A DNA stretch of 64,000 bases, taken from assembly GCA_021796235.1 (NCBI GenBank), contig JAJYOJ010000002.1, forward strand, positions 34,660 through 98,659. Direction: 5' to 3'. Position 1 is the first letter of the stretch. Each line of letters starts with the position of its first letter. Positions 10,102-63,194 of the stretch are shown here, piece by piece. The position numbers and the translations under genes were made by a program. The DNA is from a bacterium. Lineage in GTDB: Bacteria > Patescibacteriota > Microgenomatia > UBA1406 > GWC2-37-13. The notes beneath the pieces are model-generated. The model was not told the DNA's origin, searched no databases, and saw only the letters and a list, made by a program, of their open reading frames with translations.

Positions 10102-12264
10102 TTAAGCCTTTCTTCCGAATTTTTCTTTGGAGAGTTTGATGATCTTTTCGCGGTTGTCGTTTTTTAGAGCGGGAAGAGGCAGGGTCGTTGCCGGGAAGGG
10201 AGCCGAAGTCATACCGTCAATTGACAGCTTCAAAACTATTTCATATTTACCGAGAGCCACCAGATCATTTTCATCATAAATTTCACCGAATTCATAAGTA
10301 AGCACATGGCCGTCACGCGCTCCTACGACAAAAGAAATTAGAGAGCCGACGTTGCCAAAAATTGCCTGGGTGACTTCTTCATCAAGCTGTTCAATATATT
10401 GGTTTGCCAGAGAAAGGGAAAGCCGATATTTCCGGGCCTCCGACAGAATTTTTATAAATGAGGTTGTTGCGAAGTTCTGAAACTCATCAACAAAAAGGAA
10501 AAAATCCCGGCGATCGCTTTCTTTGACAAATGAACGATTCATGGCAGCCAGTTGAATTTGAGTGATGATCATCGCTCCAAGTAGGGCCGCATTATCTTCA
10601 CCCAATTTTCCTTGCGAGAGGTTTAAGATTAGAATTTTTCCTTCGTTCATAATCTTTTCGAGATCGATTGAAGATTTGGGCTTGCCCAAAATATTTCTAA
10701 TCATTTTTGAGGTTACAAACTGGCCGACTTTGTTTTGGATCGGTGAGATGGCCTCGGCTTTAAGGCGGTCGGGCATTTTGGCAAACTCGTGTTCCCAAAA
10801 ATTCTTGAGTACAGGATCTGCAAGGTTGCTGACGACTTTTTTCCGGTAATTTGCATTGGACAAAAGATTCAGGATGTCAACCAGGGTTGCGTCGGGCGTT
10901 TCCAAAAGTGTAAGTATGACATTTCTTAGAATGTACTCAAGTCTCGGACCCCAGCTTTCCTTGTAAAGTTTATAAAAAATCGAGACAATCCCGGAAGCCA
11001 CCAGATCTTTCTGCTGTTTATTTTTAACTTCCAAGACATTTAAAGAAAACGGCCGTTCGGTATCGAATGGTTCAAGATAGACGACATCGTTTATTCGGCG
11101 CTTGGGAATAAAGTCCAGAATGGTTTCTGACAGGTCGCCGTGCGGATCGATAATACCAACACCGCGGTCTTTTCTGATATCGTCAATTGCCATATTGGCG
11201 ATAAGTGTTGATTTTCCGGCGCCGGTTTTTCCGATGATGTAGACGTGTTTTCTGCGGTCCTCGGTTTTTATGCCGAAAATCGTTTCTTTATTTTTAAACT
11301 CGGTCTTGGCAAAAAAATTGACGTCTTTTTTCATTTCATCTTTTATATTGTCTGCGACCGGTAGGTTTTCCGGCGGCTCACCGCTCAAAGTCTTTCCCCA
11401 GGCAATATTTTTGACTCCCGCCATAAGATATCCCGGCGGATGCCATAAAGTCGCAAGTTCTTGGGCGTTTAAAACCTGAAATCTTCGCTCAAAATAATAA
11501 GTGGTTCGCTTTTTTATCCTCTCAAGCAAAAGCGGTTTAAAAATATAAGGACGCTTAAAAACAAACTGGTTGCCTTCACCCAGAGAGAAACTTCCGAATG
11601 TCCCGGAAAGATTTTGCAGATAGGGCAGAGCCGGAAGATTTTGGGGAGTTGCAACCAGAAGCCGGACGAGCGCCTTACCACCCTGGAAGGAGGCTTTTCG
11701 CATAATTATTTGGCGCTGCGGATTTTGCGTGTACTTGTCGGCGGCCGGATCGTAGACCATGTGATGTGTCTGTTCGACCGCACGGTCCGCCCAGGCAAAA
11801 ACTGCCGGAGTTACCAGGATTTGGATGAGCATTTTGACATCGGCAGGCTGGCGTGCCAAAAAACCGATTAGCGACGACAGAGGATCAATATCTTTAAAAT
11901 CAAAATAGGTTTTTATGGGAAGGTAAAAATAGGAGTTTAGCGCAACCTCGCCGACTGCCAGATTTGCGGATTTAGTGACGATACTCATCGGATCGGTGGT
12001 TTTTTTGACGATTGAAGACGGAAACGAAGAGGTAACCAGACTTTGGATAAAAGTTTCATTTTCAGTTGGAGTGGTTACATAAAAATAAATCGTCTGGCCC
12101 ATTAAGAATATCTCAAAAGCATAGGTTTTGGGCCGTAAAAAAGGCCGCTTCCACCACGGGATATAGGGGTAAGAGAGGAGTGAGGCGAAAATCTGCGACG
12201 CCGCCTCAATCGGTGTTTCGTCGTCTTTAGGATTACGGATTTGGAGGTGCGAAAGTTTAGCCAT
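10102..12264 (-). CDS. VirD4/TraG/TrwB-like (HerA-FtsK superfamily) P-loop ATPase with no TM segments
   Basis: Walker A IIGKTGAGKSTLI, then IIDPHGDL, and Walker B FLFVDEFQNF. About 330 aa of non-hydrophobic N-terminal domain of unknown family. Confidence 0.65.
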   Translation of the reverse strand: MAKLSHLQIRNPKDDETPIEAASQIFASLLSYPYIPWWKRPFLRPKTYAFEIFLMGQTIYFYVTTPTENETFIQSLVTSSFPSSIVKKTTDPMSIVTKSANLAVGEVALNSYFYLPIKTYFDFKDIDPLSSLIGFLARQPADVKMLIQILVTPAVFAWADRAVEQTHHMVYDPAADKYTQNPQRQIIMRKASFQGGKALVRLLVATPQNLPALPYLQNLSGTFGSFSLGEGNQFVFKRPYIFKPLLLERIKKRTTYYFERRFQVLNAQELATLWHPPGYLMAGVKNIAWGKTLSGEPPENLPVADNIKDEMKKDVNFFAKTEFKNKETIFGIKTEDRRKHVYIIGKTGAGKSTLIANMAIDDIRKDRGVGIIDPHGDLSETILDFIPKRRINDVVYLEPFDTERPFSLNVLEVKNKQQKDLVASGIVSIFYKLYKESWGPRLEYILRNVILTLLETPDATLVDILNLLSNANYRKKVVSNLADPVLKNFWEHEFAKMPDRLKAEAISPIQNKVGQFVTSKMIRNILGKPKSSIDLEKIMNEGKILILNLSQGKLGEDNAALLGAMIITQIQLAAMNRSFVKESDRRDFFLFVDEFQNFATTSFIKILSEARKYRLSLSLANQYIEQLDEEVTQAIFGNVGSLISFVVGARDGHVLTYEFGEIYDENDLVALGKYEIVLKLSIDGMTSAPFPATTLPLPALKNDNREKIIKLSKEKFGRKA

Positions 12265-12267
12265 AGA

Positions 12268-15102
12268 TTAGTTGTTCTTTATCTTCAGTATACATAAGAA
12301 AGTTATTATGAGCAATCCGAAGCCTATAAATTCCAGATACTGCGGCCAGAAAATAATTGTAATTTTTTTTGTTCCCGACCCAACGGACCACCCATTTGCC
12401 CAGTTATTGACAAGGACATGATCTGTCAGAAGTTTGCCATTAGCAAAAGCGATCCAACCGAGGTCAAAGCTCTGGTTCAAAACAATATAACTACTATTTG
12501 TTGTTACTTCATAAGTGAAGTAATTGATTTTTTTGGCTTGAAAATCTAGACTGGATCGAGATGGAATTTCAAAATAGCCTTTCTTTACGAATTTTATATT
12601 TTTTAATAGATTGTAGGGGAAAAGATAAACTTCCAGAGCTTTAATTTCATTTAAAGAAGTAATTCCATTATATGAGTTATTCTGAAAGTCAAGGCTATAG
12701 CCCAATCCGTACTTATATTTTGGAGGCACGATGTAATATTCGAGATTTTTTATCAATCTATCTTCGATATACGATTGATCCTTAGTCTCATCTAGAAGAT
12801 AGAAAAATAAACGTCTTCCTGATAAATTCGTATTATTTATACTTATCAAGTAACCATAATTTTGGTCAAGAAAAGGAGCATTATAGCCAAAACAGGTTGT
12901 TTTTGAGGCGCATTTAGTTATAGCAGTTAGTTTCGGATCGAAGTTTTTAACCAAGATTTTGGGTATGTAAACAGTAAGTAGTTTATCAGTAATATCTGTG
13001 ATTAGGCTCGACGTCAAGTAGGTTATATTACCGTTGATATTAAGTATCGCTTGATTTTGCGTTGTGGGTACAACAATATTGTAGTCTTGTGGATTTATCT
13101 GCAAATTTACTTTAACGATAAAGTTACTTTGATCTTCGCTTATAGTCCAGTTCTTATTTGAAATACGTGTTTGGCTCATTAATTCTGAAAAAGGGTAGTA
13201 CTCATCATACAATCCAGATTGGTCAGTCTGAAAACCGTTGGTATCTAAATATGCCCTGTCATCATTAGTTATCCTATATTTTGGGCCAATGTTGGGAATG
13301 TTTTGGTAAGTAGTTATAAAGTTTTTAACATTAGTTTGTTTCACCTGATAAAGCGCCAGATCGGGCCATTTTTTAACAAGAGAAACCATTGGACTTTCAT
13401 TTAATAGCTTATCAATTCGATCATATTGCATGCCTTTAAGAGATGAAACTACAGGCAAGAGTGAAGAATCCACCAAAAGATAGTCTATATCATATTTTTT
13501 TAATACCATCTCGAATTCATTAATATTTTCCGACTCAGTCGCAGCTTTCATTTCCCAAAAATAACCCTCACTTTTATCACTCCAAACGTCAAATGTTCGA
13601 GAAACAATCGGTTGCTCAATCCCGTACCACAAAAAACCCGAGCCATCATAGCCCCAGTGCGTGAAGAACCAGCCCCAAAATGTATAATCGGGCAGGAGAG
13701 CAATTCTTTGGTTTTTATCTACAGTTTTCATGTAATTAATTAACTGCGCATATTCGTCTGGTATTTGTATCTTCATGGTTGGAGAAAAGAAGGAGCCTTG
13801 GAAAGCCGGAAATGCGTACAAAAAAATAAAAAAACAGATAAAAGCTTCAAATAAATGTATTCGCTTAAAGACCGGTACCAAGAGCAGAATTCCTTGAGTG
13901 AAAAAGTAACTGAATAAGAATGAATAAGGAATAATAAACTTAGTAAAAGGCGATCTAAAGATCTGATCAATGAAGTGAATGCTTCGTAATGTGTCATTGA
14001 GGGTTTGAATCAGAACCGTATTATTTAATAAAGCTACAACAATTGGAATCAGGGCTATTGTGAAAGGCAAACTATATTTATTTTTTTTAAAGTTTCCTAT
14101 GAGACCAATTAAGGCAATGCCAAAAAAAATGTAAGGTAGGGTTCCAATTAAAGATATTCGAAAATATTTTTTCCAGGGTGCAAAAAGTTGACGATTGCTT
14201 TTATCGAAAAGGTCAAAATAAAAACCTTCCATTTTAATAAAGTAGGGGAGAGTTCCTTTTTCTTTGTTTTGGTAAAAAACATCTCCGGTTGCGATTTGAT
14301 TTATCTTTGCCGATTCAACTATACTTCCACCTCCGTTTTTCAAAAAATAGAGCTGTGGCAAGATCCAGAACGAGTTAACCAGGAAAATAATGAAGAAGAC
14401 AATTAGAGACTTCTTAATCATTAATGTTGATCTTGACTGAATTAGAAGGCCTATTAATAAACAAACCAGTATGATGATGTAGACTACGAATAACGTTTGA
14501 ATATATGCCTGGCCCACTGCAAGCAGATTTATTATAAAAAGCAGAAAATAATCGCGTTTTTGAACCTGTTCTTTATTAATTGTTTTTAAGAATATCCAAA
14601 CCTCCCAAGGCAGAAAGGCAAAAAAGGTTGAGAATGCTTCAAAAGGCACATAGAAAATTTGTATTGTTCCCAGATTAAGCATATAAAATAAAGATCCTAA
14701 GAAATTAACGAAGTTATTTTTTTTATCTTTATTAGTAAAATCTAAAAGTTTTAGCATTCCCAGTCCTCCAATAAGGAATAGAAACAATTGAACAAAATAA
14801 CGGATAATATTTTGAGGTAAAGCGAAAGATATCAACCAAACGAATGTTGCTCTTACCAAATCCGAAGCATGCGCCATCCCCGCGGTTAAGCCTAAGCTTT
14901 GATATTCTTCCCAAACGGAAAATAAAGCACGCTTAAAGGCTAAAGATGGGTATAGTTCTGTTTGTAGACTGTCCCAGCCAAGAAGATAGCTACATGGTTT
15001 ATAATTTATAAAAAAAACAAGCGCAGCTATCAAGATTATTAGAATTAAAAAGAGGTTTTTTTTAAAAAAAATCTTCATGGATTTACATCTATTGTACTTC
15101 AC
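12268..15102 (-). CDS. Large polytopic membrane protein, GT-C-like (AftD/DUF3367-like) putative glycosyltransferase
   Basis: 944 aa with about 12 or more TM helices in the N-terminal ~480 aa. The early loop GWDSLQTELYPSLAFKRALFSVWEEYQSLG resembles AftD-type GT-C enzymes. Large extracytoplasmic C-terminal domain plus a final TM. Alternative start at 15078. Confidence 0.45.
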   Translation of the reverse strand: MKYNRCKSMKIFFKKNLFLILIILIAALVFFINYKPCSYLLGWDSLQTELYPSLAFKRALFSVWEEYQSLGLTAGMAHASDLVRATFVWLISFALPQNIIRYFVQLFLFLIGGLGMLKLLDFTNKDKKNNFVNFLGSLFYMLNLGTIQIFYVPFEAFSTFFAFLPWEVWIFLKTINKEQVQKRDYFLLFIINLLAVGQAYIQTLFVVYIIILVCLLIGLLIQSRSTLMIKKSLIVFFIIFLVNSFWILPQLYFLKNGGGSIVESAKINQIATGDVFYQNKEKGTLPYFIKMEGFYFDLFDKSNRQLFAPWKKYFRISLIGTLPYIFFGIALIGLIGNFKKNKYSLPFTIALIPIVVALLNNTVLIQTLNDTLRSIHFIDQIFRSPFTKFIIPYSFLFSYFFTQGILLLVPVFKRIHLFEAFICFFIFLYAFPAFQGSFFSPTMKIQIPDEYAQLINYMKTVDKNQRIALLPDYTFWGWFFTHWGYDGSGFLWYGIEQPIVSRTFDVWSDKSEGYFWEMKAATESENINEFEMVLKKYDIDYLLVDSSLLPVVSSLKGMQYDRIDKLLNESPMVSLVKKWPDLALYQVKQTNVKNFITTYQNIPNIGPKYRITNDDRAYLDTNGFQTDQSGLYDEYYPFSELMSQTRISNKNWTISEDQSNFIVKVNLQINPQDYNIVVPTTQNQAILNINGNITYLTSSLITDITDKLLTVYIPKILVKNFDPKLTAITKCASKTTCFGYNAPFLDQNYGYLISINNTNLSGRRLFFYLLDETKDQSYIEDRLIKNLEYYIVPPKYKYGLGYSLDFQNNSYNGITSLNEIKALEVYLFPYNLLKNIKFVKKGYFEIPSRSSLDFQAKKINYFTYEVTTNSSYIVLNQSFDLGWIAFANGKLLTDHVLVNNWANGWSVGSGTKKITIIFWPQYLEFIGFGLLIITFLCILKIKNN

Positions 15103-15982
15103 CGATAAATTGCAGACCCAGTCGAGAATACTTCATCGAGTAATGAAGTTTACGCATTTTCTCATAGAGCCAGAAGACAAGTGTCTGCGGTAAAAGTAAA
15201 ACTAATAGTGCTTGAAACAGCGTAAAAATTATTCCGGTTATTGTTGGACGATAATGATATTTTATAACAGCTCTAAATCTTGACAAAAGAGTGTATAAAA
15301 ATGTTTTTTTAATGTCTTTAAGTGAAGTGTTTTTATCGTGCAGTCTATAAAGTAATACGATATCTCCTAGATTTTCAACTTTTCCGTATTGGAATAGTTT
15401 AAATAATAGTTCTAACTCTTCTGCCGTATCCAGTCCGTCGTGGTAAAACTCAAAATCCTTAGGTAATCTTTTTCGCGCGATCATTAATGTGGGTTGCTGC
15501 AAAGGTACAAACTTAAAAATGTACGAATATATTTCCTTAAATTTGGTCGGAAATATTTTTTCTCCAATAACTTCACCGTTTTTATTAATTATTGAACACT
15601 GACCACCAACCGCCACTGTATTTCTGTTTTTTAACAAAAATACCACCTGTTTACTTATTCTGGTTTTAATCGCAACGTCATCAGCGTCCATTCTGGCGAT
15701 AAAATCGCCTTTTGCTTTTGTAATTGCATATTTTACAGTTTCTGAAACTCCGATATTTTTTTTGGCGATACGAAAAATTCGAATTCGTTTATCCCGTTTT
15801 TTAAATTTTTTTAAAATTTGGTATGAACTGTCGGTTGAAGCATCGTCAATGATAATAAATTCGAAATTTTTGTAGGTCTGTTTTAAGATACTTTCAATTG
15901 ATTGCACTAAGAAATCGCCAGCATTATAAACTGGCATGATGACCGAAACGAAAGGTCTTTTTGTGTTTTGATTTTTTTTCAT
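15089..15982 (-). CDS. Family 2 glycosyltransferase
   Basis: VSVIMPVYNAGDFLVQSIESILKQTYKNFEFIIIDDASTDSS and RMDADD motifs. The start MKKNQ at 15982 is preceded by GAGGAAAT. Confidence 0.85.
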   Translation of the reverse strand: MKKNQNTKRPFVSVIMPVYNAGDFLVQSIESILKQTYKNFEFIIIDDASTDSSYQILKKFKKRDKRIRIFRIAKKNIGVSETVKYAITKAKGDFIARMDADDVAIKTRISKQVVFLLKNRNTVAVGGQCSIINKNGEVIGEKIFPTKFKEIYSYIFKFVPLQQPTLMIARKRLPKDFEFYHDGLDTAEELELLFKLFQYGKVENLGDIVLLYRLHDKNTSLKDIKKTFLYTLLSRFRAVIKYHYRPTITGIIFTLFQALLVLLLPQTLVFWLYEKMRKLHYSMKYSRLGLQFIGEVQ

Positions 15983-16269
15983 ATTTCCTCTGACCACAAA
16001 GTTATTTATGGTCATAGGAAAGAGCGGAAAAATATTAGTGCTTTATGGACATTGGCGGGGAGCCAAGGTGGACCTCAAAAAGAGGTACACAAAGCATAAT
16101 ATATTCCGCTCATCGGGTTCAGGGCAGCGCATCGCGCTGTTAAAGAGCTTTACGGCCGGGGTACTGTCAGAGACAGTGTTGGTCCATCCGGACGGGGAAA
16201 GCAATCGGGGAAGCCGAGATCTCATGCGGCGATGTCAAAGAATGACATCCTTTTCTGTTTTAGCGCTGT

Positions 16270-17115
16270 CTACTGGCAGGCAGACCAACCGCTAAGCGGT
16301 GTTTCGGTGGCATGTGCCCAACCGAATTGAACCGCTTGCGCGATACGGAAGCAAAACTCCGTATTGGCCCACTCATTCTTAGTGATAGCGACAAAGCCGT
16401 CGGTGACGGTTGTGTCGAGAGTACCAGGACCCGCAACTGCCTTGTAGACGCCATTTGACGTACCATCTACGTTAAAACCGCCAACAATCGCTGTGGTTCC
16501 AGTGAGCAATGGGATTACCCAATGCTTGGTGTGGTCATTCAAGTCTGCACAGACTGTTCCTTGCGGGACATTCTTGCAGGGTACACCGGTTTCTAGATAC
16601 ACCGATGGATGACCGATCTCTGGTTGGGGCGGTAAGTTGTAAGGCGCCACGTTAGTCGTGATTGGCGACGGTGCGGGTTGGTTCCCAAAGTTCGAGTCGG
16701 ACAGTCCAGCAATTTCCTGTGGCCAAGGGTTGATTACCCCACTTGTGACGTTGCCGCCAACCGGTGTGTTGTGAATAAGACAGTTTCCGCCATCGCACAT
16801 TTGACCGCTGTCTAGGACGATCTTCCATCCAAAAACAGTGGACCCTGCATCAAAATGCAAACTGCGATTTTGACCAGTTTCCATGCGTTGTGGCGAAGAC
16901 GGCGTCGGTACGACGGGTGGCGCTACAGGCGGTGCAGGTGCGGGCGGCGCAACGGGCGCTGGTGTTGCAATGGGCGGCGTAGGCCAGTGGAACGCGAGAA
17001 CAGCATAGAAGCCGCTCACAGCGAGATAAACGATGGCCGCAACTGCGAGTACGACAACGACAGCGAGTGCTACCCAAAGTAGCAACCGCGCAATGGTTCC
17101 AAGAACTCCAAACAT
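16270..17115 (-). CDS. GC-rich island: membrane-anchored protein with Pro-rich linker and Cys-containing ectodomain (hypothetical)
   Basis: 281 aa. N-terminal TM region LLLWVALAVVVVLAVAAIVYLAVSGFYAVLAF, linker PPIATPAPVAPPAPAPPVAPPVVPTP. RBS GAGGAGG is upstream of the ATG at 17115. Confidence 0.7.
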   Translation of the reverse strand: MFGVLGTIARLLLWVALAVVVVLAVAAIVYLAVSGFYAVLAFHWPTPPIATPAPVAPPAPAPPVAPPVVPTPSSPQRMETGQNRSLHFDAGSTVFGWKIVLDSGQMCDGGNCLIHNTPVGGNVTSGVINPWPQEIAGLSDSNFGNQPAPSPITTNVAPYNLPPQPEIGHPSVYLETGVPCKNVPQGTVCADLNDHTKHWVIPLLTGTTAIVGGFNVDGTSNGVYKAVAGPGTLDTTVTDGFVAITKNEWANTEFCFRIAQAVQFGWAHATETPLSGWSACQ

Positions 17116-17152
17116 TCTAGGCCTCCTCGTACAGGATTTACGTACTCACGAC

Positions 17153-17461
17153 TCACGACTTTCCCGTCAGTTTGTCCCAGAAATCGCGGGGCGATCCAAT
17201 CCAATCCTTGCGGGATTGGGGAGCCGGCGACGGGGTGACGGGCGGGGTCGGGACAACGGGCGGGACGGGGACGAGCGTGCTGGGAGCACCACATTTGCTG
17301 CAGAAGTTCGCAGAGTACCGATTTTTGGTTCCGCAGTTAGCACACGTCCAGTCAACGGATTTTGCAACTCCGCACTCCGAGCAGAACTTAGCGCTCATAG
17401 GCGCTTTGTGACCGTTTGAACAGGTCCAAGTTCTACCACCTTTCTTCTTTGTAATAGCCAT
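17153..17461 (-). CDS. GC-rich island: double zinc-ribbon protein with Pro-rich tail
   Basis: 102 aa. CSNGH...CSECG and CANCG...CSKCG form two CxxC-type ribbon pairs, followed by PVPPVVPTPPVTPSPAP. RBS AAGGAGG is upstream. Confidence 0.75.
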   Translation of the reverse strand: MAITKKKGGRTWTCSNGHKAPMSAKFCSECGVAKSVDWTCANCGTKNRYSANFCSKCGAPSTLVPVPPVVPTPPVTPSPAPQSRKDWIGSPRDFWDKLTGKS

Positions 17462-17487
17462 TTTAGGCCTCCTTGAGAAAATAGTCG

Positions 17488-17565
17488 CTAAAAGCGACGG
17501 GTTTTTACGACACTAACTTTACTTACCTCTAAAAGAACGATTTCGGTACCGTCAGACCATTTCAT
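17488..17565 (-). CDS. Possible 25-aa leader/micro-ORF at the head of the island operon
   Basis: Own translation: MKWSDGTEIVLLEVSKVSVVKTRRF. It is preceded by AAAGGAGGTGATAA. Too short to judge coding potential. Confidence 0.25.
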   Translation of the reverse strand: MKWSDGTEIVLLEVSKVSVVKTRRF

Positions 17566-17587
17566 TTATCACCTCCTTTCAAATAGA

Positions 17588-17634
17588 ATACGTGCGCTCT
17601 AAGGACAAAAAATTTATCCTCATAGTGCACGTAT
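17588..17634. promoter_or_regulatory. 18-bp-arm inverted repeat (operator-like) upstream of the island operon
   Basis: atacgtgcgctctaagga (17588-17605) versus the rc of tcctcatagtgcacgtat (17617-17634): 15/18 match, 11-bp A/T spacer. Confidence 0.5.
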
Positions 17635-17744
17635 CCTAGAGCTTAATCAAAATAACCGTTTTGCAACAATTATTTCTTTCAGCATAAAGGATGTGATTGC
17701 TTCAAGGAGTACCATGTGGTCTATCTTTCCCACATAAAATAAAA

Positions 17745-18055
17745 TATTCCCTGTCAGCTTTTTTGAAAAGCTGATAGGCATCAATTTCTCATTTCCGCAA
17801 ACTCAAGCAAATTGAGTTTTGGATCTTCGAACGATGCCTAAACTCATTTGTAAAAGTGCGACAAGATTTGCTGCTTACGCTTGCTTGTTTTACGCAAGCC
17901 TCCTCTTGTCACCGATATCCCTCTTTTCATCGAGGGTTGGCAAAAGCTATCTTTGCCCCCTCGATGGGGGATTTCCTCGGGTTTTTAAGCCCAAGAAGTG
18001 AAGGGCAGCCCTTCTGCTGATTTAAGAGCACCCTCCACTTCCTAGACTTAAAGCC
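17745..18055. ncRNA. Candidate structured non-coding RNA (family and strand unresolved)
   Basis: About 300 nt with no ORF and many nested complementary segments: catcgaggg...ccctcgatg enclosing ggcaaa..tttgcc; gaagtg...cacttc; aggcatc...gatgcct enclosing aaactcaa..ttgagttt; tcagctttt-ttg-aaaagctga. Confidence 0.3.
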
Positions 18056-18084
18056 AAAAAAAACCCAAGAGGTTGTTTCTTGGG
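18056..18084 (-). terminator. Intrinsic terminator of the DUF11 gene
   Basis: Stem cccaaga/tcttggg with a 7-nt loop. An A8 run on the + strand gives a U-tract on the - strand. Confidence 0.7.
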
Positions 18085-18278
18085 TTCAATGACAACAATC
18101 TCAGCAGCGATTGTACTACCTATAGTAAACATATCAGCAGTTATATTTTTGCTATAGTTAAGTTTGCAAAAGTCCATATTATTTTATCCACAGACACAGC
18201 ACAATATCCTAATTAAAATTACTATATCCAATCAGCACGGATAATGATGGACTTTATGCCTAATTGTCAAAGCTGCGA

Positions 18279-18917
18279 TTAACTAATTTTTTTCTTCAAG
18301 AGCCAGCCGGCTCCAACGCCAATTAAATCGAGGGAGAGAAGTACGGCGCCGAATTCCGGTCCGGCTGACGGAGTGGTTGCCACGCCTAAAACCTGTTTTT
18401 CGATACAAAACTGCGAACTGGAGTTGTCAGATACGGTTCCGTTGGAAGCCGTAGCTGTATTTGTTTGACAAAATAATCCCTGATCAGCGGGAAGCTGATT
18501 TTGGGGTAAGACCTGCATCTGAAGATAATAAGTTTTTTGATCACCCGGATTAAAGTCGCCGGCGCCGAAGGTCAAAACTCGGCTATTGGAATCAAACGAT
18601 CCGGGGCCTGAAATAGGCTGGATGTCAGTTGGAACATTATCGGTTACAGTGACATTGGTTATTGTTACATTTGAGGTATTTTGGACCACTAATTTGAAAA
18701 AAAGCGTTTGTCCGGGTGCGAAGCGAGGATCAGAAGGTGAAAGATTGTCAACGAAGGTAGCGTTGGTTGCCTGGCCGCCCGATGTACCGGGTGTGCTTAC
18801 CATCTTTTCGATCAAAATCGACAGCGAGGGACCGGGTGCACCGTACTGTCCGTACGCAGCAGTGGCAAGGAAAAGTAAAGTAGAAATAGCCGACAGAACT
18901 AATGCCAGTTTTGTCAT
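18279..18917 (-). CDS. DUF11-like repeat-domain surface protein with C-terminal PEF + TM + KKK anchor
   Basis: Signal peptide. LVVQNTSNVTITNVTVTDNVPTD is typical of the DUF11/conserved repeat domain. The C-terminus is SAGPEFGAVLLSLDLIGVGAGWLLKKKIS. Confidence 0.6.
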   Translation of the reverse strand: MTKLALVLSAISTLLFLATAAYGQYGAPGPSLSILIEKMVSTPGTSGGQATNATFVDNLSPSDPRFAPGQTLFFKLVVQNTSNVTITNVTVTDNVPTDIQPISGPGSFDSNSRVLTFGAGDFNPGDQKTYYLQMQVLPQNQLPADQGLFCQTNTATASNGTVSDNSSSQFCIEKQVLGVATTPSAGPEFGAVLLSLDLIGVGAGWLLKKKIS

Positions 18918-19018: not shown

Positions 19019-19612
19019 ATGAAGCTAAATGCCAGGGAGTTACGGGAGTTGGAGGAAAAACGGGCGCAGGGGAAAATTCGTGAGATTAAGCGAAATCCGA
19101 TCTATTTTATCCTGGAAAATATTTATGATACTTACAATATCGGCGGCTTATTTCGTTTGGCTGATGCTTTGGCAATTGAAAAAATGTATCTCTGCGGCGA
19201 CACCGAAATTCCTCCCAATTCGCGGATCAAAAAAGCTTCGATAGGTACCTATAAAATTGTTCCTTGGGGATATAAAAAAAATACTAAAGAAGCAGTTTCA
19301 GACTTTAAGGACGACTCGAAAAAATTTTTAGCTCGGCTCAACTTGAATGACTCTAACAACGAGTCTCGTAAAAATTTTTCCTCGTCGTCCATTATCGCAG
19401 TCGAACAGCATATCGAAGCAGTTTCCTACACAAATGCAGACTATTCATTTCCCATTGCTCTCATTTTCGGTAACGAGACCTACGGAATTTTGCCCGAAAC
19501 TTTAAAGTTAGCAGATCAGATTGTTGAAATACCGATGTGGGGGATAAATAAATCGTTGAATGTGATTGTTTCTGCGGCAATTGTGAGCTATTGGGTTATA
19601 AACAAACTTTGA
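19019..19612 (+). CDS. TrmH/SpoU-family RNA 2'-O-methyltransferase
   Basis: YNIGGLFRLADALAI, LIFGNETYGI and IPMWGINKSLNVIVSAAIVSY motifs. There is a low-complexity insertion of about 30 aa between motifs 1 and 2. Confidence 0.8.
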   Translation: MKLNARELRELEEKRAQGKIREIKRNPIYFILENIYDTYNIGGLFRLADALAIEKMYLCGDTEIPPNSRIKKASIGTYKIVPWGYKKNTKEAVSDFKDDSKKFLARLNLNDSNNESRKNFSSSSIIAVEQHIEAVSYTNADYSFPIALIFGNETYGILPETLKLADQIVEIPMWGINKSLNVIVSAAIVSYWVINKL

Positions 19613-19683
19613 GCCGACAGTGGGAATCGAACCCACAGTCTAACCCTTACCAAGGGTTTGTTTTACCACTAAACTATATCGGC
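19612..19683 (-). tRNA. tRNA-Thr (anticodon GGU)
   Basis: Hand-folded cloverleaf: acceptor GCCGATA/TGTCGGC, D stem GTTT/AAAC, anticodon stem AACCC/GGGTT with loop TTGGTAA, T arm GTGGG-TTCGATT-CCCAC. It abuts the TrmH stop codon. Confidence 0.85.
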
Positions 19684-54207: not shown

Positions 54208-54381
54208 GTTCTTTATGTAAATCTGCCCGGCGGCGAGTAGAGAACAGGGTAGAGGCCCAGACTAGATGGGTAAGGGAAGTGTACGGACGTGAAGTATTTA
54301 TCCTATAGTATATTAAATACTATAGGGTATTAAATAAATGTAAGAATCCGGCTCCAAACTTAATATTATTAGTTTTAAATC

Positions 54382-54682
54382 GAGGCTAATTTAATAAGTT
54401 TAGTAAGCTACTACGCTCCAAAGTTGAGTATCACTCTATGTGGATAACTGCCAGGATTTGAGGCTAAAAATTAGAATTTAGATCTGTATGACGCTCTAAA
54501 TTACATTCATTCTTACATTGTTTAGCGTTCTAATTTATTAAAATTTAGCCTCAAAAATTATATTTTAGACCAATATTATCTTCTAAACTTAATAGGGTTC
54601 TATTTCTCGTGCGTTCCTTATGTGCTATTTCTTAATAATTTAGCCTCGAAATCGATAGTTTAGAGCAATTATATGTTCTAAA
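54382..54682. repeat. Degenerate array of four 41-42-bp units, each ending in a 24-bp TTTAGN-N12-NCYAAA palindrome
   Basis: The units are 54382-54422, 54460-54500, 54546-54587 and 54641-54682. Each has a core gaggcta (units 1-2) or its complement tagcctc (units 3-4) plus an A/T tract, followed by tttag(a/t)-N12-tc(t/c)aaa. Confidence 0.7.
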
Positions 54683-55259
54683 TATAACGACGTTTCTAGC
54701 CTCAATTTAGCCTCAAAAAAAGAGTGCGAGAGAGGTTAAAAAAAGGTTGAAATAACTGAGTTATAACCGGAGAAAATAAAGTTTATTCACGTCATGTTAA
54801 GAGAAGAGAAAGATTCTGTTCTCTCCTAAAATGTAGTAATAAAAAATAAAAATACCCCAATCGGCAGCCGGCTAAAAAATGAAATACAACTCCGGGAGCA
54901 GAAGCATGTATAACGTCGTAAATTGTATCTTTTACGACGTCAACCGTGGCTAGTTCCAGGCGAGTGGTTTAAAATTAGAAATTAATAATTTTAAATTTAT
55001 TTAAAAATAATTCATTTCTTTCTTTTCTCCCCTAATTTATCTCTCTGTTATCTTCAGAGATCCGGGGTCCTTTTTAGCCCTTTAAAACCTGCTAACTCTC
55101 CCCCGGATTCCGCCTTTTTTAGCCTTATAACAATCTAATTCTTCCCTATCCCCTAAAGAATTGCTAGATTGGGGAGTGCTTAAAAATAAGCCAACATAAT
55201 TATTGGAATGATAATCAGGCACTTGATACGGGCTAACTTTAATATATAATCTATCTATC

Positions 55260-62786: not shown

Positions 62787-62887
62787 CCCTGATTTGGAGC
62801 GTCTCAGCGACCTGAATACTACCATTAAACAGCTCGCTGGGGCTTGCTCAAAATCTTGGGATTCAAGACTTTTCGGTTTTACATCCT

Positions 62888-62935
62888 GGAGAAGGAAAAA
62901 GAGAAAAACACCTGAGAATCTCTTTTTCCTTCTCC
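62888..62935 (+). terminator. 17-bp perfect-stem hairpin followed by a T-rich run
   Basis: ggagaaggaaaaagaga (62888-62904) and tctctttttccttctcc (62919-62935) with a 14-nt loop, followed by ttttctttc. Confidence 0.5.
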
Positions 62936-63024
62936 TTTTCTTTCAAACTGTCATGTATTTACAAAATTACTCTCAAAAATAGATAATCCTGTAACAGTTG
63001 GAAAAGACCGCTATAAGGATCCAC

Positions 63025-63120
63025 TTACTTTATTTCCCAGACAACACGTCCTTCTTTCAGACGTTGCACCGGCCGAAAGCCTACCAGAATAAGCCAAAGA
63101 ATTATTTGTTTAGCTTCCAT
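63025..63120 (-). CDS. Possible 31-aa ORF downstream of the recombinase
   Basis: Own translation: MEAKQIILWLILVGFRPVQRLKEGRVVWEIK. GGGAGG lies about 8 nt upstream of the ATG. Confidence 0.2.
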   Translation of the reverse strand: MEAKQIILWLILVGFRPVQRLKEGRVVWEIK

Positions 63121-63194
63121 ATAGAAAACCTCCCTTCATAAATATATTTTAAGTAATTCTTGTCAAGTTTTTTTTAAACCTTCTGAAAAGAAAG

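Follow-up and report, generated by a model that had tools for sequence, protein, structure and literature searches.

Genes and signals of the GC-rich block

We analyzed a 64,000-nt stretch of DNA (the window; contig JAJYOJ010000002.1, positions 34,660 to 98,659 of the forward strand) from a Microgenomatia bacterium of the Patescibacteriota, in which about 1.5 kb at 16040-17640 is far richer in guanine plus cytosine (GC) than the surrounding sequence. This block holds a compact minus-strand operon with a leader, a gene for a 102-aa zinc-ribbon protein, and a gene for a 281-aa membrane-anchored protein, and it is followed by a noncoding spacer. The operon is an undescribed, clade-specific envelope-protein operon located in a conserved, putative glycosylation cluster, and its GC richness is long-lived and partly synonymous. 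Its features are as follows (ORF, open reading frame; SD, Shine-Dalgarno sequence; GT2, glycosyltransferase gene downstream of the block).

16270..17115, minus strand: ORF for the 281-aa membrane-anchored protein; SD GAGGAGG at 17122-17128
17153..17461, minus strand: 102-aa double zinc-ribbon protein with a Pro-rich tail (Pfam); SD AAGGAGG at 17468-17474
17484..17498, minus strand: terminator-like site, a GC hairpin (GTCGC-TTTTA-GCGAC) followed by a U-rich tract, with the stop codon of the micro-ORF in the loop
17488..17565, minus strand: leader micro-ORF of 25 codons, peptide not conserved
17569..17579, minus strand: extended SD-like AAAGGAGGTGA within GAAAGGAGGTGAT, 118 nt upstream of the zinc-ribbon start
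17584..17638, minus strand: long inverted repeat or predicted hairpin at the head of the leader, with 26-nt arms that are 81% complementary
16016..16269, minus strand: GC-rich (50.4%) noncoding spacer of 254 nt from the stop codon of the 281-aa gene to the GT2 start; fold z-score of -5.25 relative to dinucleotide shuffles

The mean GC content of the window is 39.0%, that of the span 16040-17640 is 53.0%, and that of the 1.45 kb at 16016-17465 is 54.6%. The best 1450-nt sliding window (starting at 16051) had a GC content of 54.6% (+4.1 standard deviations), compared with 45.7% for the runner-up outside of the block, and bases 16921-16980 reach 73%. The ORFs for the 281- and 102-aa proteins are 54.8% and 56.6% GC, respectively, versus 32.8% for the adjacent GT2 gene and 33.7% for the 944-aa gene beyond it. 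The tetranucleotide correlation between the block and the rest of the window was r = 0.006, whereas the 82 other segments had a mean of 0.90 and a minimum of 0.58; by both measures the composition is atypical of the host, as is asked of a genomic island. The GC-rich region ends sharply at the start codons of GT2 (16015) and of the zinc-ribbon gene (17461), and the leader upstream of the latter (17462-17640) is only 39% GC. The 5.7-6 kb around the block were 100% identical in three assemblies (the NCBI metagenome-assembled contig and two Logan assemblies from different runs), and because this identity extends across both junctions the GC-rich block is not an assembly chimera. These results agree in most respects with an earlier note that had been made from the letters of this DNA alone, which had described a GC-rich block of this size, suggested GC and tetranucleotide scans, discounted a mis-join, and listed a compact minus-strand operon with an operator-like inverted repeat, a 25-aa micro-ORF, a zinc-ribbon protein, an anchored Pro-rich protein containing Cys, a GGAGG before each of the three ORFs, and flanking GT2 and DUF11 genes (the last two now identified by Pfam). 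Its estimate of a mid-30s percent GC background holds for the immediate flanks only (32-34%), the window as a whole being nearer 39%.

The AlphaFold2 (AF2) model of the 281-aa protein (predicted local distance difference test score, pLDDT, of 70.8) comprises a helix spanning residues 2-39, Pro-rich linkers that are disordered, and a pair of β domains. Together with the ORF, the model upholds the N-terminal transmembrane (TM) region, Pro-rich linker, and Cys-containing ectodomain that had been proposed, and in the resulting layout a hydrophobic helix at the N terminus leads through a Pro-rich linker to ectodomain A (residues ∼77-140) and then to ectodomain B (∼161-281). The Cys residues form three pairs (107/112, 180/189, and 255/280), and a DsbB gene is encoded near the operon; the pairs and the nearby DsbB fit an extracytoplasmic location of the ectodomain. 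The product is best read as a membrane-anchored, disulfide-bonded surface protein, in which the N-terminal helix would act as the anchor and two small Cys-bridged β domains would be displayed outside on a Pro-rich stalk. It is probably abundant. The protein had no match in Pfam, NCBIfam, PHROGs, or PADLOC and none in the PDB by sequence profile, and a Foldseek search of the model against the PDB and BFVD returned nothing at E ≤ 0.001, with only weak jelly-roll/cupin noise. We recovered 31 close homologs and, in a library clustered at 50%, 417 representatives. The ectodomains are well conserved, with many invariant alignment columns, and their arrangement is modular across the family (A-B, B-A, B-B, and four to five copies of A). 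This ectodomain family, with its ∼400 representatives, is uncharacterized, modular, and Cys-bridged, and has no Pfam entry.

The 102-aa protein matched the Pfam families Zn_Ribbon_1 (PF13240; 38.6 bits, cut-off 25) and DZR (PF12773; 30.0 bits, cut-off 27.3). Its one homolog, P0032, which is 78% identical and occupies the same position in the related locus L007, was likewise above the Pfam zinc-ribbon thresholds. The predicted Zn ligands form two sets of four (Cys14, His18, Cys27, and Cys30; Cys40, Cys43, Cys54, and Cys57). Two CxxC...CxxC ribbons had been described in the earlier note; the double zinc ribbon stands, but its first knuckle has the form C-x3-H instead of CxxC, a difference that is kept in P0032. 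Comparison of the ORF with its homolog gave an amino acid identity of 74% and a third-position identity of 52%, which indicates purifying selection. The ORF is not called in the public annotation (L001 9094-10001), and the exact protein is absent from a collection of 5.8 billion proteins; it is apparently a genuine gene that annotation has missed.

Membrane proteins of the zinc ribbon-TM-ectodomain type with DZR or Zn_Ribbon_1 N termini exist, the TcaA-like proteins being an example. What the proteins described here have in common with this type is a zinc ribbon in the cytoplasm, a Pro-rich linker, one TM helix, and a domain outside the cell, and in P0005 and an extended ORF of L008 these parts are fused in one chain, in the order N-terminal DUF5763 zinc finger, Pro-rich linker, TM helix, and ectodomain. 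They differ from it in that the double zinc ribbon of the window and of L007 is a separate gene directly upstream, each gene having its own SD, and in that the ectodomains belong to an undescribed family. The 102-aa zinc ribbon may be a cytoplasmic partner of the 281-aa protein; such a zinc module would work with the membrane anchor, to which a different zinc finger is fused in some orthologs. The protein P0003 (251 aa, "Candidatus Roizmanbacteria", L008 1217-2329) looks N-terminally truncated, and its in-frame upstream extension contains a DUF5763 zinc finger (29.8 bits, cut-off 26.3), as in P0005.

Several signals around the two genes concern expression. Among all ORF starts of the window, GGAGG precedes only the three of the block. 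The window has a single copy of the 11-mer AAAGGAGGTGA; of its six copies in related loci, four precede the first slot gene by 107-193 nt (the slot being the position between the DUF11 and GT2 genes); the position of GAAAGGAGGTGAT is kept in L007, L008, L009, and L021. An SD-like site far upstream of the main start, as found here, is the mark of a STAB-SD element, the complementarity assuming a canonical anti-SD. At the place of the micro-ORF the relatives have unrelated ORFs of 38 codons (L007), 11 codons (L021), and a single codon (ATG-TAA, L009), and nonconserved short ORFs (25, 38, 11, and 1 codons) after an extended SD are consistent with STAB-SD but are not proof of it. The leader hairpin (17584-17638) has an equivalent in L007 with changed pairs; the small hairpin (17484-17498) also has an analog with changed pairs in that locus, located just upstream of the zinc-ribbon SD. 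No ORF or coding remnant was found in the 3' spacer (16016-16269). The equivalent spacer is strongly structured in all 12 related loci (z-scores of -3.5 to -7.7), compared with z-scores of +2 to -2.8 for most other intergenic regions of the window, and alignment of the spacers across relatives revealed no sequence conservation, structure being all that they have in common. No credible Rfam match to the block was obtained, whether at the gathering threshold or with E ≤ 5. The spacer is probably a stabilizing or terminating structure. In the cry3A mRNA, a 5' STAB-SD stabilizer and a 3' stem-loop retroregulator act on the same transcript (PMC4113751). The block resembles that case in that a perfect extended SD precedes the main start by more than 100 nt, the 3' end is strongly structured, and the two elements surround a gene expected to be abundantly expressed; it differs in that a short nonconserved ORF follows the SD, the host is a Patescibacterium, and the stabilization is putative. 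The features of the leader and spacer would be in keeping with a stable, heavily translated mRNA.

The slot and its contents in related genomes

Loci with homologs were drawn from encoding contigs, a species-genome collection, and metagenomes. About 30 Patescibacteria loci have the same gene order: DUF11/CLIPPER, slot, GT2, GT-C glycosyltransferase, and VirD4-like ATPase. The family gene is directly upstream of GT2 and of a membrane protein of ∼950-1120 aa in every recovered locus that extends far enough, usually with a DUF11/CLIPPER gene upstream and with a VirD4/TrwB-like ATPase nearby. The named homologs are assigned to the Patescibacteria group, Roizmanbacteria, Levyibacteriota, and Microgenomates. 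Three contigs (L012, L015, and L018) are titled "uncultured Gammaproteobacteria bacterium", yet they carry the Patescibacteria-type DUF11-slot-GT2-GT-C cluster at 33-44% GC and are probably mis-binned or mislabeled.

In each locus the family gene is 10-28 GC points above its flanks, and over all loci the slot genes have a GC fraction of 0.51-0.66 versus 0.25-0.51 for the rest of the locus. The values are 53.8% against 25-27% for the flanking genes in L010, 51.8% against 33% in L004, and 65.6% against 38-41% in L013, and for 18 further metagenomic loci they are 50.5-63.9% for the family gene and 26-51% for the rest of the locus. High GC is also found for other occupants of the slot, namely a coiled-coil membrane protein (L020), a domain-A protein (L019), and a lipoprotein in L021, where other GC-rich secreted protein(s) fill the slot. 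The operon of the window would sit in an ancient, plastic slot between the DUF11/CLIPPER gene and the GT2 and GT-C pair.

These comparisons go against the part of the earlier note that had taken the block for a foreign insertion, possibly from a high-GC host, Gram-positive, or Chloroflexi-type donor. That note had proposed a search for the empty site in relatives and had stated that the same genes with similar GC in sibling genomes would speak against a recent transfer. The same slot gene at similarly high GC is what we found in low-GC relatives (25-44%), and no empty slot was seen among the loci that carry the family, ∼30 related loci being occupied. All named homologs are of Patescibacteria type. 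No homolog in a GC-rich background was found among the loci examined, no viral relative in IMG/VR or the GenBank phages, no donor lineage in sets of 5.8 billion and 1.84 billion proteins, and no detectable relative of the family outside of the slot. The block has no integrase or transposase domains (Pfam) and no flanking direct repeats, and the nearest tRNA (19611-19683) is separated from it by the syntenic DUF11 and SpoU genes.

The slots of three relatives only (L007, L010, and L020) contain genes of the 23S_rRNA_IVP type, a four-helix-bundle family that includes Avd of diversity-generating retroelements (DGR); neither a reverse transcriptase nor a template repeat was seen in these relatives.

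L007 145-489, minus strand: 23S_rRNA_IVP-type gene
L010 5974-6342, minus strand: 23S_rRNA_IVP-type gene
L010 7221-7427, plus strand: 23S_rRNA_IVP-type gene
L020 8046-8396, plus strand: 23S_rRNA_IVP-type gene

Age and inheritance of the block

Comparison of the window gene with its orthologs gave identities of 15-45% at four-fold synonymous sites, which is at or near saturation, and the flanking GT2 and membrane protein genes behaved likewise. The pairwise identities of ectodomain B in 12 loci were correlated with those of GT2 (Spearman 0.66, Mantel p ∼0.0035) and of the GT-C membrane protein (rho 0.43, Mantel p ∼0.0065), and the correlation between the two flanks themselves was 0.53. The agreement of domain-B divergence with both flanks argues for co-inheritance. 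Synonymous changes in the family gene were polarized by parsimony with three ingroup-pair/outgroup triplets, a procedure that is rough at this divergence and for which the triplets overlap, and they comprised 28 GC→AT and 29 AT→GC changes. Relaxation from a third-position GC fraction (GC3) of ∼0.55 to the ∼0.2-0.35 of the flanks would be expected to give roughly three times more GC→AT changes; the balanced counts show no sign of amelioration.

The block resembles a classical genomic island in its GC content, tetranucleotides, and codon usage, all far from those of the host, and in its sharp borders. It differs from one in having no mobility genes, att-like repeats, or border tRNA, in the occupancy of the site in all relatives examined, in divergence that is congruent with that of the flanks, and in the absence of compositional decay. 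We conclude that the block is very probably a resident, vertically inherited gene pair whose composition has been maintained.

Source and maintenance of the GC excess

The GC content of the 281-aa gene was 55.0%, compared with 50.4% predicted from its amino acids and the codon usage of the window and with a gene mean of 39.5%; ∼70% of the excess in the window therefore comes from amino acid composition. The protein is rich in Pro, Ala, Gly, Val, and Thr, and its GARP residues amount to 33% (20% in other genes) and its FYMINK residues to 19% (34% in other genes). The synonymous part is seen in a GC3 of 0.52 versus the 0.40 expected (+2.6 standard deviations of other genes), and the zinc-ribbon gene has a GC3 of 0.62 versus 0.41 (+4.5 standard deviations). 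GC3 is ∼0.5 across all segments of the 281-aa protein, beyond the Pro linker. In the relatives GC3 exceeds the expectation from amino acids and local codon usage by 0.1 to 0.47, codons ending in C and codons ending in G are both elevated in 12 of 12 loci, and in the same proportion of loci the 3' spacer is GC-enriched relative to the flanks. Two simple causes were rejected: amino acid composition alone, since GC3 is above expectation in all loci, and a preference for C-ending codons alone through tRNA adaptation, since G-ending codons rise too. The synonymous GC preference is held at equilibrium clade-wide.

Taken together, we consider it probable on balance that this resident gene pair, with its maintained GC composition, is a cell-envelope operon that a Microgenomates-type Patescibacterium has inherited vertically. 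As to the cause, we tentatively propose that selection keeps GC high because an abundant envelope protein calls for an mRNA that is very stable and intensively translated. For a resident operon such selection would be the most likely cause, and it would draw support from the only GGAGG starts of the window, the STAB-SD-like SD with its leader ORF, the 5' hairpin, and the structured 3' spacer. A more novel reading, in which a locus-specific force new for bacteria of the candidate phyla radiation (CPR), such as GC-biased conversion at a surface-protein recombination hot spot or selection for GC-rich, nuclease-resistant mRNA, holds the slot 10-28 GC points above the genome, its saturated synonymous sites and 3' spacer included, seems to us doubtful.

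Several observations weigh against the main interpretation. The two conventional markers of high expression available, L28 (in the window) and S1 (in L020), have GC3 values of 0.389 and 0.382, and because they exhibit no GC3 shift the GC-rich codons are not demonstrably optimal codons. Folding of the coding sequences beats shuffled controls only modestly (z-scores of -2.5 for the 281-aa gene and -1.0 for the zinc ribbon), and the joint rise of G-ending and C-ending codons also fits a nontranslational force. L022, a relative of the cluster, has a Pro/Thr-rich slot protein of low GC3 (0.256), and the synonymous effect is therefore not universal. The loci are not phylogenetically independent and include some near-duplicates. 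On the functional side, the modeled ectodomain is without a recognizable fold or ligand, the interaction of the zinc ribbon with the anchor is putative, and the 281-aa protein is only possibly glycosylated.

The best-surviving rival, which we regard as unlikely, is that the slot is a recombination hot spot, serving for example to swap surface-protein alleles between strains via the conserved DUF11 and GT2 flanks, and that GC-biased gene conversion keeps the GC content high at all sites. GC-biased gene conversion occurs in bacteria (PMC4450053), and it would account for the increase in both G3 and C3, the GC enrichment of the noncoding 3' spacer in 12 of 12 loci, and the variable slot content; the upstream leader, however, is not enriched (39% GC), divergence tracks the flanks, and no paralogous cassettes are present in the window. 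Somewhat less likely again is that the family entered the common ancestor of the Microgenomates clade by transfer long ago and that another force then kept its composition. Such an origin would suit a family with no detectable relatives outside of the slot, a composition alien to the genomes, and the plastic slot content (A-B, B-A, B-B, and other families), but neither set of 5.8 billion or 1.84 billion proteins contains a donor lineage, and the maintaining force is still required, the non-decay of GC being left unexplained by the transfer itself. The origin is not readable from composition because the synonymous sites are saturated.

Recent acquisition from a high-GC donor (Actinobacteria, Chloroflexi, or a host) is very improbable. 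The highly atypical GC content and tetranucleotides, SD sites that are unusually strong for the window, and Pro-rich linkers like those of high-GC Gram-positives are what such an event would leave, but they are countered by a slot that is occupied and GC-rich in ∼30 low-GC loci, by saturated synonymous sites with flank-congruent divergence, by the lack of an integrase, transposase, or flanking repeats at the block, and by the lack of any homolog that is viral or in a GC-rich background. We attach equally little weight to programmed diversification, either by vls-like cassette conversion or with the gene as a DGR target. The Borrelia vls locus has a GC content of 49.1% compared with 28.6% for the genome and a GC skew of 0.52 (PMC11499132), and the block resembles it as a surface-protein locus ∼20 GC points above an AT-rich genome throughout a clade, a likeness that implies a maintained, locus-specific force; the Avd-like 23S_rRNA_IVP genes in the slots of L007, L010, and L020 could also be cited in favor. 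The block differs from vls in lacking silent cassettes, strong skew (-0.05 on the coding strand versus +0.52), G-runs, and signs of segmental conversion, and its protein domains are conserved, with many invariant columns, rather than variable. Moreover, the 64 kb contain no template/variable repeat pair, silent cassette, or paralog, and the gene lists of the loci contain no reverse transcriptase. An assembly chimera, which the abrupt changes in composition at 16.0 kb and 17.5 kb might suggest, has practically no chance given the three identical assemblies and the recurrence of the gene order in many other genomes.

The case illustrates that a block with every look of a textbook foreign island, deviating in GC, tetranucleotides, and SD usage, can prove to be a long-standing resident; in CPR genomes, horizontal transfer would be called wrongly if composition were the sole guide. 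In Microgenomates the family goes with a single conserved envelope cluster, DUF11-GT2-GT-C-VirD4-like, and its ectodomain proteins are candidates for a major role at the surface or in host contact of episymbiotic bacteria, and they may be glycoproteins. A clade-wide synonymous GC excess in genomes with GC contents as low as 25-30% offers a clean case for studying what opposes AT mutation pressure in reduced genomes. If a locus-specific force is indeed at work, the slot would offer a natural setting in which selection could be told apart from biased conversion in streamlined episymbionts.

Neighboring genes and putative surface glycosylation

The cluster in which the operon is located includes the following features.

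15089..16015, minus strand: GT2 glycosyltransferase, downstream border of the slot (Pfam Glycos_transf_2, E = 1.5e-33)
18279..18917, minus strand: DUF11/CLIPPER surface protein, upstream border of the slot (Pfam DUF11, E = 2.6e-10; syntenic in relatives)
12268..15102, minus strand: 944-aa membrane glycosyltransferase of predicted GT-C fold, AftD-like (AF2 and Foldseek)
10102..12264, minus strand: VirD4/TrwB/HerA-like ATPase (Pfam TrwB_AAD_bind and DUF87; synteny)
17929..18044, minus strand: three-hairpin noncoding element of ∼120 nt between the DUF11 gene and the slot (covariance model)

The AF2 model of the 944-aa protein (pLDDT 86.1; predicted template modeling score 0.86) matched AftD (6w98) in Foldseek with E = 3.7e-16 and a probability of 1.0, followed by STT3, DPY19, PglB, AglB, AftA, and ArnT. 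As modeled, the protein has the multi-TM N-terminal module and the extracytoplasmic domain of the GT-C fold. It is not in the curated GT-C sequence families (AftD PF11847 and YfhO PF09586), its match to DUF6541 (E = 0.018) is below the cut-off, and it has no NCBIfam or PDB sequence matches. More than 472 homologs were found, a few of which have precomputed matches to PF11847, PF20176, or PF09586, and a G-W-D motif (D21) near the N terminus is invariant in 29 homologs; its Asp may be a counterpart of the conserved acidic residue in the first extracytoplasmic loop of GT-C enzymes. On the basis of the model, this neighbor is a GT-C-fold glycosyltransferase. For the ATPase at 10102-12264, the VirD4-like NCBIfam matches were below the cut-off. 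The same gene has the largest GC3 excess of the window genes outside of the block (+0.10 over expectation) and matches PADLOC mad8 with E = 4e-17.

Protein O-glycosylation systems include the actinobacterial Pmt system and Pgf of Streptococcus mutans, and mycobacterial AftD is among the GT-C enzymes. As in AftD/Pmt/Pgf-type systems, a GT-C enzyme and a GT2 here adjoin secreted or anchored proteins with Pro/Thr/Ser-rich linkers. The present case differs in that the acceptor could be a glycan rather than a protein, and the GT-C protein of the window fails the Pfam AftD model, with the fold alone matching. The GT2 and GT-C genes are constantly found beside genes for secreted proteins rich in Pro, Thr, and Ser, which hints at a module for surface glycosylation but does not demonstrate one. 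That the Pro/Thr/Ser-rich stalks are the substrates of the adjacent pair is a conjecture that we draw from this conserved adjacency only, and we hold it loosely.

The covariance model for the three-hairpin element was built from L004, L007, L009, and L021, without the window copy, and it retrieved the latter at full length (22.1 bits, E ∼0.004) with different stem sequences. The element is found at 7840-7960 in L004, 1127-1250 in L007, 1088-1211 in L009, 6630-6751 in L021, and 241-355 in L008, and it matched no Rfam family. Stem P1 varies, its changes being compensatory, P2 reads CUUGGGC/GCCCAAG, and P3 is nested and GC-rich. Just downstream of the DUF11 gene, on the minus strand, are a promoter-like TTGACA-18-CATTAT (10 of 12 matches; 18270-18241) and a terminator-like hairpin (18087-18061), and the ∼170 nt that they bracket may be transcribed as a small RNA. 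This hairpin is crossed by a 51-aa ORF called at 18061-18270, which is probably spurious.

Across the whole window, Rfam at the gathering threshold detected tRNAs only. Two other intergenic regions of the window gave strong folding signals relative to shuffles: 62789-63194, beside a tRNA-Ser, with z-scores of ∼-5.6 and -4.5 on the two strands, and 54208-55259, with a z-score of ∼-4.2 on the plus strand. Both may hold unannotated structured RNAs.

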